Under the pieces are notes generated by a model. That model was not told the origin of the DNA and did not search any database. It worked only from the letters and a program-made list of their open reading frames with translations. Below are positions 5,603-41,961 of a stretch of DNA of 64,000 nucleotides, one piece after another; positions within the stretch are counted from its first letter, which is position 1, and every line of letters starts with the position of its first letter. The stretch is from Escherichia phage Barry: the sequence record LR880803. One strand, written 5' to 3'. The translations under genes were made by a program, and so were the position numbers.

Positions 5603-6337
5603 ATGAAAGAGATGACAGAACAAGGTAAGGAGATTTTTAATCTCTTAAAAACTGGTAAAGGGTTCTCTAACCCGCTTATTACTGGTGCAGCAGTTCTCGG
5701 TGGAACCGTAGCTGCTTCTACATCACTTGTAAGCTCTATTAGTTCTGTAACAGACCCTACAATGAAGGAGAAACTTGTTGCTGCTGGACTTACAACAGTC
5801 CTTCTAAACAGCTTTACAACAAGCCTTACAAGCACTACAGCAACTACTAAAACTCTGACAGACTACGGTCAAAAATCTATTGATGAGTTTTCATCACGTA
5901 TGCAGGTAGCAAAGGGGTATTCCAATGTTATGGGTGCAGCAGGAGAACAAGTTGGTTGTACACCATTCAGTGGTATCATGGGTGTTGCTACAGAGTATGG
6001 TCAAAAAGCTATTGACATGATGAACAGTACACTAGATAGTGTTAATGGTGTGTTAAGTGACTTACAAGATGCTATTGATAAGGGTCTTGATACTGTTTCT
6101 GATTTAGCTAACCAAGCTGTCAGTAAGATTAATGAAGGTATTTCAAAGATTACAGCTTATGCAGATGAAGTTGTGCAGATGATTGAAGAAGAAGCTGCCC
6201 TTATTGCAGAGTACCTTAAAACGAATATCAATGGGTTCTTAGCAGGTATCTTACCAGACTGGTTTGACGATGCTTGTAAAACTGGTGTGATTGACACTAT
6301 TGCAACACCAGAAATGAAGAGCGCATTACAGAAATAA
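5603..6337 (+). CDS. hypothetical protein (Thr/Ser-rich N-terminal half, alpha-helical C-terminal half)
   Basis: ATG at 5603 with SD aaaggtg; the track start at 5540 overlaps tRNA-Phe and is rejected. Confidence 0.5.
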   Translation: MKEMTEQGKEIFNLLKTGKGFSNPLITGAAVLGGTVAASTSLVSSISSVTDPTMKEKLVAAGLTTVLLNSFTTSLTSTTATTKTLTDYGQKSIDEFSSRMQVAKGYSNVMGAAGEQVGCTPFSGIMGVATEYGQKAIDMMNSTLDSVNGVLSDLQDAIDKGLDTVSDLANQAVSKINEGISKITAYADEVVQMIEEEAALIAEYLKTNINGFLAGILPDWFDDACKTGVIDTIATPEMKSALQK

Positions 6338-6338
6338 T

Positions 6339-6431
6339 GGAAGATTAACCCTAAAAGGTAAGGGAGCAGTTTGCTAAACTGCCAGTAGCTGAGAAATCGG
6401 TGTACCAGTTCAAGTCTGGTATCTTCCTCCA
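6339..6431 (+). tRNA. tRNA-Ser (anticodon GCT), long variable arm
   Basis: 93 nt; perfect acceptor ggaagat/atcttcc, perfect anticodon stem gcagt/actgc with loop ttGCTaa, long variable arm, T-arm ACCAGTTCAAGTCTGGT, CCA encoded. Confidence 0.75.
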
Positions 6432-6435
6432 ATTT

Positions 6436-6511
6436 GAATCCGTGACAGAAATGGATATGTGCCTGTCTGCAAAACAGGTTTATAAGGGTTCGAGTCCCTT
6501 CGGATTCTCCA
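6436..6511 (+). tRNA. tRNA-Cys (anticodon GCA)
   Basis: Perfect acceptor gaatccg/cggattc, perfect anticodon stem cctgt/acagg with loop ctGCAaa, T-arm AAGGGTTCGAGTCCCTT, CCA encoded. Confidence 0.75.
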
Positions 6512-37947: not shown

Positions 37948-38138
37948 TACTCAATATCAATAAGTTCTTGTGCAATGCTTTTTAGATTACCTTTCAAGAA
38001 AACCTTCTCAGAACCTGAAAGAGATGAATTGTCAATTAACCTGTTCATTCTCTCAAACAACTTCTGCTTACGGTTCTTGATAGTTTCCTTTGAAGCACCT
38101 TTCATCATCGCTGCATGGGTTCTTCCACGGTGGCTCAT
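37929..38138 (-). CDS. hypothetical basic protein
   Basis: 69-aa ORF; TTGACAAGGTG motif upstream on the minus strand near 38190. Confidence 0.35.
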   Translation of the reverse strand: MSHRGRTHAAMMKGASKETIKNRKQKLFERMNRLIDNSSLSGSEKVFLKGNLKSIAQELIDIEYWRHQK

Positions 38139-38199
38139 AAGCCCTCCTATATAAGATATAGTATAAGGTACTCTTCCCTGAGCACCTTGTCAATACTAA

Positions 38200-38760
38200 T
38201 CAGTGTACCTCATACCAGCTTTTACCAACCTTACCAGTACCTGTAACAAGTGTTTCTTTCTTAAGACCTAAGTTCTTAGAAGCTTGTCCATAATACCAGT
38301 CAGTAACTGCCTTCACCTCTGCCGTCATACTTTCTGGGCATTCCCAACTTGTCTCGTCGTGATAGGAGCACAATAAACGAGCACCTATAGCTGGTTTACG
38401 ACCGTTCAACTTCATCAAACCTTCGTCAATCATACGACGGCAAGCAAGGTTAATTGCTTCATTCTGAACCTGCGCCTCACTACCCATAAGTGTGTAATTC
38501 AATAACTTATGTGGAGATTTACACCATAACCACGCTCCAGCGACCTGAATGTACCCACCCTTAGCGATTGCAGCACTCTTGCCGAAAACCTCTTCTAATG
38601 CCTTCTTAGTGGCCTTAAAATCGGCTTCTAAGTTATCAAGTAGTTTCTTAATCTTTGGTAGACGCATATAGTAGGTCTGCTTAGTCAATGCACCTTCCTC
38701 TGTAGAAGCTGCCTTAATGGTTTTGGCAAACTTCTCATCACCTGCACCGAACAATACATC
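38200..38760 (-). CDS. DNA polymerase (family A, T7-like), 3' exon carrying second half of motif B and motif C
   Basis: Begins (L)FGAGDEKFAK (T7 YGAGDEK) and has motif C LCSYHDE; no ATG start and an in-frame TGA just upstream, so it must be joined to the upstream exon. Confidence 0.7.
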   Translation of the reverse strand, partial: DVLFGAGDEKFAKTIKAASTEEGALTKQTYYMRLPKIKKLLDNLEADFKATKKALEEVFGKSAAIAKGGYIQVAGAWLWCKSPHKLLNYTLMGSEAQVQNEAINLACRRMIDEGLMKLNGRKPAIGARLLCSYHDETSWECPESMTAEVKAVTDWYYGQASKNLGLKKETLVTGTGKVGKSWYEVH

Positions 38761-39565
38761 TGGTCAATACACTCGCAAGGTGTACCAGTTCTCTTATGAA
38801 CTTCTCCGCATTTCTACGGAGTGTCGGACTATATCACGTAGTAGTAATACTACCGTTGCACTTGGGAATGGTCATTAGCTTACCACCCTACTCTACTCAG
38901 TTCATACATTAAGTATGCTTTTCGATAGTCTCTGAACGTTTCTCTGTTAGGAACTCTAAAATACTATTATTTACTAAGGTATGCAATTGCTCTCTTCATG
39001 TTCTCTATACTATCTGAGAACAGCCCAAGACCTCTGTTACAGTTGTGACACAGCATACCTCTTACCTGTCCTGTTTTGTGGTCATGGTCAACAACCAGCT
39101 TGGCTTTATGTCTTGAACCATCCATGATAAAACCTTCACCACCGCAGATTTGACACTTGTGACCACACTTACTTAGTAACTCTTCGACCTCTTCTCTTTC
39201 TAAGCCGTAAGTCCTTAAGTAATAGTTCTTTACCCTTCCCTTTTCTCCACAAGCAGAACTGCAATACGTCTGTCTTGCTGTTCTAGGTGTAAACTGGTTA
39301 TTGCAACTTGGACATATTTTCTCTATGACACGACTTGCTGCTCTTCTGTCTACTTCAAGAACGCAGTTTCTACAACGTTTTTGATTGTACTGATATGGCT
39401 TAAACTCTTCGCCACATCTGGAACAAACTCTTTCTTTATAACCTGCCATTGTCTCTCTCCCATTTCTACTATAGGAGTCCTAACAGAGACTTCGCTGCTG
39501 ATTACCATATCTTTTAAGACTTAGGCTTCCAGCAATTCACAACGTTTTACATGCGCCACTGACGC
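38761..39565 (-). other. intervening sequence (probable self-splicing intron) in the DNA polymerase gene
   Basis: ~0.8 kb separates ...AKNGIY from ...FGAGDEK at the same point in motif B and carries a free-standing HNH ORF; exact splice sites not determined. Confidence 0.55.
38967..39449 (-). CDS. HNH homing endonuclease (intron-encoded)
   Basis: HNH motif VVDHDHKTGQVRGMLCHNCNRGLG and N-terminal CxxC zinc-binding pairs; lies wholly within the polymerase intervening sequence. Confidence 0.75.
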   Translation of the reverse strand: MAGYKERVCSRCGEEFKPYQYNQKRCRNCVLEVDRRAASRVIEKICPSCNNQFTPRTARQTYCSSACGEKGRVKNYYLRTYGLEREEVEELLSKCGHKCQICGGEGFIMDGSRHKAKLVVDHDHKTGQVRGMLCHNCNRGLGLFSDSIENMKRAIAYLSK

Positions 39566-41704
39566 ATAGATACCATTCTTAGCCTTCTTACGGCCTTTAG
39601 TTATCTCGTGAAGGAGTTCCTCATCCTGTGTCTCTCTACAACGGATAATATCTTCTTCTTTGTTCAATGCAAAATAGATACTGTTAAGTGTATGCGCATC
39701 AGTACCTGTGTAGACTTCATACAAATCATTATCAGCATCGTAACGACAATATTTATCAGCCTCTGGATTTAGGTACTTATCAAGATGCTTGCAGTAGTAT
39801 CGTCCATCATCCTGTTTAGTGAACTCTACAAACTCTTTACCTTCAGTTACCGCTTTGGTGAAGTCTTTATCACCCATAAAGTTACACAGTAAAACAAGCT
39901 GTGCAGAGTTCTGGTCAACTGAAACGATATTAGTCCCTTCCTCACAAATCCACACCTCCCTCATAGGTGCTCCATAGACAGCAGCACCAGACGGTACGTT
40001 TACAATACCATATTGTGTCATACGTCCAGTTGAAGTACCAAACACCATTGCACCAGCACTAAGGCGACCATCTGGACGAATCTGGTTCAACCAACCTTTT
40101 TCATCATCCTTTGAGTTCTCAATAGTTCTGCGTCGGTGCATCAAAGTATAGTACTTAGCAATCTTCTGTCCAAGTTCACCTTCAATCGTATCATAAGATG
40201 ATTCAGTAAGTTTTGGTGAAGTACGGATTAAGCAAGGCTCAAGCAAATCTGTGTACTTCTTCACAGACCAGTTATGCTCAATGTACTGTACACCTTCATG
40301 TTCAACATAACTCAAACCACACCGCTCAACCATTTCCTGCCACTTAGGATGTTTTGTAATCATCTTTTTATTGTCTTTGAAACGACAAACTTTGACAGGG
40401 CGACCATCAGAGTCTTTCTTGTAGTTCCAGTCATCTGGAATCCAACCAACTGATTTCAAGTAGTCTTTAACAACTGCTACCTGAGTCATACGAGAAACTT
40501 CAAACTCAATTGGTGTATATGGTGCATCAATCAAACCTGTGTAGCGACTTGACTCAAGTTCAAAGTGGTTAACAACGTGGCTGTTATAATACTTCACAGT
40601 TTTAACTGTTTTTACTGGCTTCCAGTCTTTGCATTTCTTACCAATCTTTGCGTTCAACTCATTGCAAATTGCACGAGCATCCTTCATTGCTACAAAGCCT
40701 TCCTTGTACTCTTCACCAGTTACAGTGTTGGTTGGTGTATAGCAATTCCTTTTTTCAATGTTAAAAATCTTTGTAGTTGGCTTACCAAATGGTTTGATTT
40801 CGTATGTCTGCATCTCGCCATTACGTACCTGCTGACGATACTTTGTCTTAGGGTACTTGGTAATTCTTTTCAGTCCATCTGCATGACCAAATGTTTCAAC
40901 ATACTCATTCCAAGCTTTTGCAAACTCTTCTCCAGTAACTTTACCTTTAGTCTTAATAGTTGGAGGAAGATGTGGTTCAACTTCTGAAGCAAGCTCATTA
41001 GTCAACTTGTCAAGTTCCTTTACATGGAACTCCATAAGCTCTTTATCAGCTTTCCAACCATTGATAGCTTGTTGACTCATCCAGAAAGATGTTTCTTTAG
41101 CTCGCATGTAAGTTTCATAAGTGTCTATACCACACTTCTTAAGCTTGAGATACTCGTTATCAAGTGCCCGTTTAGTTTTGGCGTTAATACGGATATCTTC
41201 TACAACACGAGTGAAGATTTCTGCATTCCACACACCCCAATGTTCAATCTCTGGTTTACGGACACCAACACGAGCACCCCATGCAGCCAAACCATGAGCA
41301 CCTTTATAACCCTTTGGAGTTGGCCTATCCATCCACTGAACACGAGACTGGATAAGAGAATCCTGAAAGAAATTACTCCACGGCTTACATTTTGGATTAT
41401 CAAAATTCCATAAATCAGGTGCAATGTGATTGAAAACCCACCAGTCATATCCGAGACCATTATGGATGCAAAGACGTTTTGCCTTTAACGCAAACTCAAT
41501 ACCTTCTCGTAAGCCACCCTTAATGTACTTAGTGTACTTGTGACCGAGGATAGGCTCATCTGTAAAGACCCATACAGGTGGCTCTTCATCGTCAGATTTA
41601 TAGTCTGCAAAGGCCATTACGTGAACTTTAGTGAACTCAAGGAGTAAACCATCAGTTTCTGTATCACCAACCAAATGTAAGTTTTTAAAATCTACGTTTT
41701 CCAT
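39566..41704 (-). CDS. DNA polymerase (family A, T7-like), 5' exon with 3'-5' exonuclease domain and first half of motif B
   Basis: Exo I motif VGDTETDGL; ends RKKAKNGIY (T7 RDNAKTFIY); ATG at 41704 with SD gaggga. Confidence 0.75.
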
Positions 41705-41734
41705 TTTTACTCCCTCTAAAACCATTAACCTCAT

Positions 41735-41961
41735 ACATTACTGCAAAAAATTATAAAAAGCAAGTTGACAATGCACTTGACAAGGTGTTAATCTTTGCGA
41801 AGTGGGTTTTTACTTAAAAGGTTACTTAACAGTTTAACTATACAGATACTTTAAAACTCTTAAAAGATTATTTAATAGCTTTTAAAAAGCTTTAAAGTAT
41901 AACGTATAGAATACGTTAAGATAAAAGATTAAAACTTAATAGTTACTTAAAAGAGGCTTAC
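41735..41961. promoter_or_regulatory. AT-rich divergent control region with TTGACAAGGTG promoter motif, ttacttaa repeats and a palindrome
   Basis: Between the divergent polymerase (minus) and 41962 (plus) genes; cacTTGACAAGGTGtta at 41774-41790; repeated ttacttaa(a/c)ag; inverted repeat aacgtata/atacgtt. Confidence 0.4.

Follow-up and report, generated by a model that had tools for sequence, protein, structure and literature searches.

Endonucleases of the DHHRN family are defined by the residues D, H, H, R and N together with a CX2-4C...CX2C zinc site, and the lack of the central Asn sets them apart from the HNH enzymes (Fang et al. 2018, PMC6083498). The founding characterised homing enzyme of this family is F-CphI of cyanophage S-PM2, and the same work lists the Endonuclease VII-motif proteins of phages EC6, JH2, FSL SP-010 and '2 JES-2013' as intron-encoded and, citing Ceyssens et al. 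2008, gp35 of Pseudomonas phage LUZ24 as embedded in a group I intron (PMC6083498). In addition, the genome announcement of phage Meda speaks of an intron without an open reading frame (ORF) within its polymerase gene (PMC6486253), and 'two introns' are mentioned for SPJ41 (PMC9951933). We found no account of intron structure, splice sites or splicing in the literature for any Felixounavirus. Here, we analysed a stretch of 64,000 nucleotides (nt) of Escherichia phage Barry (LR880803; the whole stretch is called the window), whose minus strand encodes a family A DNA polymerase in a gene that is interrupted within motif B. It is very likely that this essential gene carries, at that point, a mobile, IA2-like group I intron with an Endonuclease VII-type gene. 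Since the proteins of EC6, JH2 and FSL SP-010 are listed as intron-encoded and the ORF-less intron of Meda is mentioned, the element is already known in sister phages, and it is a selfish element of a typical kind, as mobile group I introns of phage polymerase genes go. Compared with the intron of EC6, JH2, FSL SP-010 and Meda, the insertion site and the ribozyme are the same, the region has 96-97% nucleotide identity, and there is no substantive difference.

Over 38100..41800, the window matches Escherichia phage vB_Eco_Tribble (OX016465.1; Ounavirinae, Felixounavirus) with 100% identity and many Felix O1-like phages with 83-97% identity. A total of 261 phage records match the polymerase gene, a count that includes duplicate RefSeq and GenBank entries, and 92 of them cover at least 80% of the 3.7-kb region including the insert. 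The uninterrupted polymerase genes of phages fjerdesal (Felixounavirus) and Sf17 (Mooglevirus) set the insert size at 805 nt, which bears out the initial annotation of a polymerase split in motif B by about 0.8 kb. Their junction sequence reads ...AAGAATGGTATCTATGCACTGCTGTTCGGTGCAGG..., and the interrupted gene reads ...AAGAATGGTATCTATGCGT/CAGTGGCGC...CCAGATG/TATTGTTCGGTGCAGG (slashes mark exon boundaries here and below). The boundaries were placed at 39561..38757 because this is the sole split that gives Y-A-L-L-F-G together with a U before the 5' splice site and a terminal G at the 3' end; the interval proposed initially, 38761..39565, had the correct length and lay 4 nt off. Exon 1 ends with AAG AAT GGT ATC TAT GCG T, the last T (39562) being base 1 of Leu codon 722, and exon 2 begins with UA UUG UUC GGU GCA GGU GAU GAG, coding ..L L F G A G D E K. 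Among the three start candidates of exon 1 (41734, 41725 and 41704), 41725 gives a polymerase of 906 amino acids.

Read separately, the upstream ORF (41734..39521, minus strand) runs to ...GRKKAKNGIY, continues through 14 read-through codons (ASVAHVKRCELLEA) and stops, and the downstream ORF (38754..38200, minus strand) starts at a TTG and reads (M)FGAGDEKFAK. It had been proposed that ...RKKAKNGIY and FGAGDEKFAK together rebuild motif B, and the intron-less alleles of fjerdesal and Sf17 and the alignment over 906 amino acids indeed confirm this. The joined exons are in frame and encode a protein with the motif B KAKNGIYA/LLFGAGDEK. This conceptually spliced product aligns with the uninterrupted polymerase of fjerdesal over 906 of 906 residues, with zero gaps and 95% identity. 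Its Pfam DNA_pol_A score is 55.2 bits (cut-off 34.3 bits), whereas the separate halves score 17.6 and 27.2 bits and fall below the cut-off, so that the family A assignment and a contiguous motif B both belong to the spliced product. The O-helix residues of such polymerases are R754, K758, F762 and Y766 in E. coli Pol I and K522, Y526 and Y530 in T7. By alignment to these residues, the intron follows base 1 of the codon that we take to be equivalent to E. coli Pol I 764, between the aromatic residues 762 and 766.

The two splice sites have the features of a group I intron. The last 7 bases of exon 1, UAUGCGU, pair with the internal guide sequence GCGCAUG to form a 7-bp P1 (P denotes the paired regions of the intron) with a U-G wobble at the splice site, and P1 is present in the minimum-energy folds. 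The intron ends with a G, and a 5-bp P10 can form between intron bases 1-5, CAGUG (39561..39557), and the first 5 bases of exon 2, UAUUG. The junction reads GCG U/UA UUG in all Felix-type intron-containing alleles, which is what P1 and P10 require, and GCA CUG CUG is the usual reading among 29 uninterrupted alleles (fjerdesal, Sf17 and 27 IMG/VR loci). The intron-type flank GCGTTATTG occurred in 0 of these 29 alleles in a degenerate search, one of them having GCGTTACTG, which is one base off the intron-type sequence. An exact IMG/VR search with the 20-mer ATCTATGCGTTATTGTTCGG, the sequence expected after precise loss of the intron, returned no match.

With the curated cut-offs of Rfam, the whole window gave tRNAs only. 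A permissive scan with the group I family RF00028 recovered two pieces on the minus strand, 39534..39421 (23.8 bits, E=0.0015, spanning P4-P6) and a weak match at 38978..38804 (15.2 bits). The family membership comes from the ORF-less, 268-nt allele of Salmonella phages BPS17L1 and BPS17W1, which scores 63.8 and 62.1 bits, respectively, against a cut-off of 50. The core of the window intron (72 nt on the 5' side of the loop with the ORF and 184 nt on its 3' side) is identical to this allele at 255 of 256 positions, and the only other difference lies in P6, where the ORF-less allele has the 12 nt CCUCUUAAGAGG and the window has 549 nt. A scan of the whole window by E-value found no second intron. 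A group I assignment was thus reached by way of the ORF-less allele in the comparison of group I and group II covariance models that had been suggested initially, and no group II intron family matched at E<=10.

We compared the helices of seven lineages, comprising the Felix type, LUZ24, the Yersinia Berlin-like phages and four metagenomic loci (IMG/VR L014, L023, L024 and L026); the related introns were found through protein homologues of the endonuclease. In each of the seven lineages, all or nearly all pairs form in P3, P4, P7.2, P8, P9, P9.1 and P9.2 despite differing helix sequences. The P3 variants, for example, are CGUUGU/GCAACG, CUCUG/CAGAG, UUGUG/CACAA, CUGUG/CACAG, CUAUC/GGUAG and CUGGG/CCCAG, where the slash separates the two strands, and one P8 pair within the Felix group is U-A, U-G or C-G. 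The P7 sequence is invariant among the lineages compared. RNAalifold on a MAFFT alignment of the 3' halves recovered P7, P9 and P9.1 only, with 8 pairs showing double-sided changes, and these compensatory pairs are located in P9 and P9.1. Because MAFFT had misplaced the variable hairpins P7.1, P7.2, P8 and P9.2, the remaining helices were checked by hand, and the hand-built table and the RNAalifold run together give covariation for P3-P9. In the window intron, the P6a arms UCUCUGUUAGGA and UCCUAACAGAGA form a perfect stem, 12 of whose 12 pairs appear in the whole-intron minimum-energy fold. Between P7 and the 3' strand of P3 lie P7.1 and P7.2, joined by the linker AACUGAGUAGAGUA, which contains GUA. 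Subgroup IA2 is recognised by extra P7.1 and P7.2 helices joined by a stretch containing G-U-A (PMC3428280), and the intron is IA2-like as judged by these helix criteria rather than by a formal subgroup classifier. Taken together, RF00028, the splice-site rules and the intron-less alleles lend computational support to the original proposal of an intron with a homing endonuclease at a catalytically essential site.

We propose that the polymerase gene and the intron would be transcribed as one pre-mRNA, in which the intron RNA would fold and GCGCAUG would pair with the end of exon 1, UAUGCGU. Free guanosine would attack after U39562, the 3'-OH of exon 1 would then attack after the terminal G38757 while P10 holds exon 2, and the exons would be ligated at TATGCGT/TATTGTTC. 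The resulting mRNA would encode the 906-amino-acid polymerase with an intact KAKNGIYALLFGAGDEK motif, the predicted peptide across the ligated junction being ...NGIYALLFGAGDEK.... Unspliced RNA would yield a truncated polymerase only, because a UAA stop lies 14 codons into the intron. The endonuclease of 160 amino acids would be translated from its own ribosome-binding site within the P6a loop. During a mixed infection, it would cut intron-less polymerase alleles near the insertion site, and repair copying the intron-containing allele would transfer the intron together with several hundred bases of flanking exon.

A different reading takes the gene as truly split, with a dead ribozyme and two polypeptides of 737 and 184 amino acids, the second starting at the TTG, that assemble non-covalently. 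The annotation of OX016465.1 agrees with it, since this record gives a 'Putative DNA polymerase' (TRIB_075), an 'endonuclease' (TRIB_074) and a second 'Putative DNA polymerase' (TRIB_073) without an intron feature, and the coding sequence of TRIB_073 begins at TTG 38754. The initial annotation had held that the downstream piece could not be translated alone without splicing or a non-standard start. It has indeed no ATG, and an in-frame TGA (38765..38763) lies 9 nt 5' of its TTG, but the TTG start does exist and is the one used in GenBank. However, no Shine-Dalgarno sequence was seen when one was looked for 5' of this TTG, and the break would fall inside the O-helix, between the equivalents of Pol I 762 and 766. 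Moreover, the ribozyme core is 96-100% conserved over about 90 phage records with every helix intact, the guide sequence exactly complements the exon ends, and the joined product is co-linear with the uninterrupted homologues. We therefore regard two separately made polypeptides as very unlikely.

The chance that the interruption is something else, be it a group II intron or an intein, a case of translational bypassing or an artefact of assembly, is close to nil, and nothing beyond the interruption of the gene itself speaks for it. A group II intron was rejected, with no family matched and no reverse-transcriptase ORF in the ORF list. An intein is excluded because the insert length, 805 nt, cannot be divided by 3 and stop codons lie in the exon frame. 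Translational bypassing was rejected since the 805-nt insert is too long, a length that, to our knowledge, far exceeds any known bypass. An assembly artefact, a concern raised at the outset, is excluded because the arrangement recurs in dozens of independently sequenced genomes, and the 92 records that span the region with its insert point the same way, as does the gapless alignment of the spliced protein; these results also speak against a chance arrangement.

The gene inside the group I intron was described initially as a complete HNH ORF at 38967..39449. The ORF is indeed complete and encodes 160 amino acids, but its product belongs to the Endonuclease VII or DHHRN family and is not a canonical HNH enzyme. 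It scores 71.4 bits on PF02945 (Endonuclease_7; cut-off 23.6), the sole family reported; none of the HNH families of Pfam (HNH, HNH_3, etc.) appeared at E<=0.01. The DHHRN residues are all present (D121, H122, H124, R130 and N138), as are the zinc cysteines C99, C102, C134 and C137, and further CxxC pairs occur in the N-terminal half. The closest solved structure in a search of the PDB is the restriction enzyme Hpy99I (E=2.5e-7), and judging from these family signatures the endonuclease is a His-Me-finger relative of HNH. A protein of phage EC6 is 100% identical to it, and the ORF is conserved at 79-100% identity in many phages. The Shine-Dalgarno-like GGGAGAGAGA in front of the gene is predicted by local folding to lie inside a hairpin, CUCCUAU...AUGGGAG, and one may speculate that this hairpin limits expression of the endonuclease. 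A scan for promoters and terminators found no sigma-70-like promoter 5' of the endonuclease ORF, and sites overall were fewer than in shuffled sequence.

The intron is polymorphic among close relatives. Of the 261 records with the gene, about 96 carry the intron core and about 56 carry the ORF at >=60% identity; the rest are intron-less. Felix O1 is among the intron-less records, and consistent with this, its genome paper gives a 906-amino-acid polymerase and reports no introns (PMC3185647). Salmonella phage Mushroom (locus L006, 405-715) has a third form, an intron of 311 nt that has kept both P6a arms with 31 nt between them and has lost the ORF. This form is apparently a deletion derivative or decay intermediate, distinct from the 268-nt form. 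The exons next to the intron are recombinant. Along the gene, Tribble shares 93-99% identity with the intron-less fjerdesal, but this falls to 71-83% at coding bases 1800-2550 (about 750 nt), a tract that contains the exon junction at coding base 2164. Between Tribble and BPS17L1, which both contain the intron, identity is 97-99% over 360 nt on the upstream side of the junction and 83-90% on the downstream side. Such divergence of the flanks is the pattern expected of co-conversion during homing. Homing is indicated by the coexistence of intron-less, ORF-less and ORF-containing alleles, by the divergent flanks of about 750 nt and by the related introns in motif B elsewhere.

It could also be argued that the intron splices but no longer moves, the endonuclease being inactive or retained for a purpose such as excluding competitor phages, and the patchy distribution being the outcome of recombination and loss. 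The ORF-less derivatives are common, both as the 268-nt form and as the 311-nt form with its P6a arms, and they resemble late stages of a homing cycle. Nevertheless, the ORF in the window is intact with all its catalytic and zinc-binding residues, the same ORF is well conserved across many phages, and the recombinant tract is centred on the insertion site, a classic trace of homing. We consider loss of mobility rather unlikely, and retain the reading of an intron that still moves.

Several points weigh against this reading of a mobile, self-splicing intron. Splicing in Felixounavirus would follow from membership in the group I family, and DNA cleavage by the endonuclease, as a nick or a double-strand break, is likewise predicted from family membership. 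On RF00028, the intron of the window itself scores no more than 23.8 and 15.2 bits, below the cut-off of 50; these low scores arise because the 549-nt P6a insert with its ORF splits the match. The fold of the ORF-less intron is no more stable than that of shuffled sequence (z = -1.19), a minimum-energy fold cannot display P3 and P7 together since they form a pseudoknot, and the helix table across the seven lineages was assembled by hand. Finally, the divergent flanks could stem from recombination unrelated to homing.

A second endonuclease gene is found near some of these polymerases. In BPS17L1 (locus L004, 3363-3875) and BPS17W1 (locus L005, 3368 onwards), a free-standing gene with HNH_3 and AP2 domains directly follows the polymerase stop. 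To judge from annotation tables, it also stands beside intron-less polymerases and beside polymerases with the intron and its ORF, and it is absent from Tribble. This gene looks like an independent element.

Among the related systems, LUZ24, a Pseudomonas podovirus (Bruynoghevirus), likewise has a family A polymerase interrupted in motif B, and its Endonuclease_7-type gp35, annotated as endonuclease VII between the polymerase coding sequences, is 52% identical to the window enzyme. The helix plan matches from P3 to P9.2, including a GNRA-capped P9. However, the LUZ24 insertion lies 6 nt upstream of that in the window, at K-T-F-I-Y(T/AT)-A (position 762 versus 764). The LUZ24 intron has P2 and apparently lacks P7.1, in contrast to the window intron, which lacks P2 and has P7.1. 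In addition, the last sense codon of the LUZ24 ORF (TGT) overlaps base 1 of GUGCAGAGACUAU (the J6/7-P7 segment), whereas the window ORF lies wholly in the P6a loop. In Yersinia phage vB_YpP_T3 (Berlin-like, of the T7 group), a motif B intron encodes an Endonuclease_7 ORF 46% identical to that of the window, and its P9.1, GUUCAUAAGAGAAC, is identical. The insertion is 11 nt further upstream than in the window, at RDNAKTF/IYG (position 760), and the ORF extends into the ribozyme core. Berlin and YpP-G are further Berlin-like phages named in PMC6083498. K1F was rejected as the closest T7-like relative, its intron lying near the 3' end of the gene (PhiI/W31 type) and carrying a different HNH enzyme.

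The introns of PhiI, W31 and Pf-WMP3 (I-PfoP3I) share with the window intron the IA2 type without P2, an ORF in P6a that has a ribosome-binding site of its own, and a host gene for a phage family A polymerase, but they encode canonical HNH enzymes, unlike the Endonuclease_7 of the window (PMC3428280). F-CphI has the D, H, H, R and N residues and the CX2-4C...CX2C zinc site, as does the window enzyme (PMC6083498), but it is free-standing beside the intron-containing psbA ('collaborative homing'), whereas the window enzyme is encoded inside the intron. Two uncultured loci, L014 and L024, have exactly the insertion site of the window and the exon context UAUGCGU/, and their polymerases are otherwise divergent.

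Motif B introns with Endonuclease_7-type ORFs lie at 2350-3000 in the vB_YpP_T3 locus (L008), at 1270-1912 in the LUZ24 locus (L091) and at about 1050-1800 in L014, L023, L024 and L026. The insertion sites are staggered within about 12 nt, namely after K-T-F (760), after K-T-G (760/761), after base 1 of the Y codon in K-T-F-I-Y (762) and after Y-A plus 1 base (764, as in the window). In most of the related motif B introns, the C-terminus of the ORF (...CNDYP..EY) extends into the ribozyme core. Endonuclease homologues of 43-48% identity also occur as free-standing rather than intronic genes in IMG/VR L017, L018 and L020 (about 1150-1650), where they start about 60-70 nt past the polymerase stop (...GKNWRDVH followed by the stop).

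Related pairs of intron and endonuclease thus occupy at least 4 staggered points (760, 760/761, 762 and 764) within about 12 nt of motif B, and their hosts include Felixounavirus myoviruses, the T7-like Berlinvirus, the Bruynoghevirus LUZ24 and several uncultured phages. In the published lists that we consulted, polymerase introns are placed only at 674 (SPO1, SP82, Bastille and Pf-WMP3), 676 (phiL7) and 881 (PhiI and W31) (PMC3428280). We suggest, with some doubt, that the DNA of motif B (the O-helix) may be an uncatalogued cross-family hotspot for one lineage of IA2-type introns with Endonuclease VII-type enzymes. If this is true, it would imply repeated re-targeting, or 'sliding' of the intron, by one endonuclease family that recognises conserved coding sequence.

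For annotation, one joined polymerase coding sequence with an intron and a homing-endonuclease gene should replace the two 'putative' coding sequences (Table 1). Dozens of Felix O1-like genomes, including some applied in biocontrol and phage therapy, are annotated with the same wrong split. The natural allele series, which runs from intron-less genes through the ORF-less intron and the deletion derivative to the full mobile intron, together with a clear co-conversion tract, makes this a convenient system for studying homing. It would be a coliphage system for a putative homing enzyme of Endonuclease VII type, and it challenges nothing known about group I introns.

Table 1. Positions in the window of the polymerase exons, the intron and its structural parts, and the endonuclease gene.
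Feature	Position	Strand	Basis or remark
Exon 1, family A DNA polymerase	39562..41725	-	ORF list, intron-less junction alignment, gapless alignment over 906 amino acids
Group I intron, IA2-like, without P2	38757..39561	-	805 nt; starts CAGUGGCGCAUG, ends ACCAGAUG, terminal G 38757
Internal guide sequence GCGCAUG	39550..39556	-	P1 with last 7 bases of exon 1, UAUGCGU; pairing check
Ribozyme core, 5' half	39496..39544	-	P3 5' strand 39544..39538; P4 39534..39529/39501..39496; P5/P5a
UAA stop in exon-1 frame	39521..39523	-	intron bases 39-41, within P5
P6a 5' arm UCUCUGUUAGGA	39478..39489	-	pairs with 38952..38941, closes the 549-nt loop holding the endonuclease gene
Shine-Dalgarno-like GGGAGAGAGA	39452..39461	-	2 nt 5' of the endonuclease ATG
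Endonuclease gene, 160 amino acids, Endonuclease_7/DHHRN family	38967..39449	-	Pfam PF02945; inside the P6a loop
P6a 3' arm UCCUAACAGAGA	38941..38952	-	perfect 12-bp stem with UCUCUGUUAGGA
Ribozyme core, 3' half	38757..38935	-	landmarks, helix comparison, weak RF00028 match
P7	38930..38925 with 38832..38827	-	
P7.1	38917..38903	-	
P7.2	38888..38864	-	
P3 3' strand	38859..38854	-	
P8	38853..38838	-	
P9, GAAA loop	38821..38804	-	
P9.1	38801..38788	-	
P9.2	38788..38760	-	
Exon 2, polymerase	38200..38756	-	ORF list, intron-less allele comparison, alignment over 906 amino acids; stop codon included

Two further loci showed sequences similar to the intron core. The gene for an RNA polymerase subunit in Shigella phage Moonfish (Schitoviridae; locus L007, 2466-3375) is broken up by a stretch without annotation, which shares 79% identity with the P3-P7 core of the window intron and precedes an HNH endonuclease gene; on the strength of this similarity, the stretch is probably another unannotated group I intron. 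In the uncultured locus L036 (IMGVR_UViG_3300027763_000043), the core strings AATTGCNGG, CAGAGACTA and GATATAGTC occur twice, about 320 nt apart, at 284-735, and a third P4-like string lies at about 2614, so that this locus may hold tandem introns near an Endonuclease_7-type gene.

Elsewhere in the window, positions 1257-6511 of the plus strand hold a dense tRNA array, with 26 genes found by ARAGORN and 23 by the curated cut-offs of Rfam. At the long-arm tRNA-Tyr (1750-1837) and tRNA-Ser (3145-3231), Rfam sees weak 'tRNA-Sec' matches only. Such an array is typical of Felix O1-like phages.

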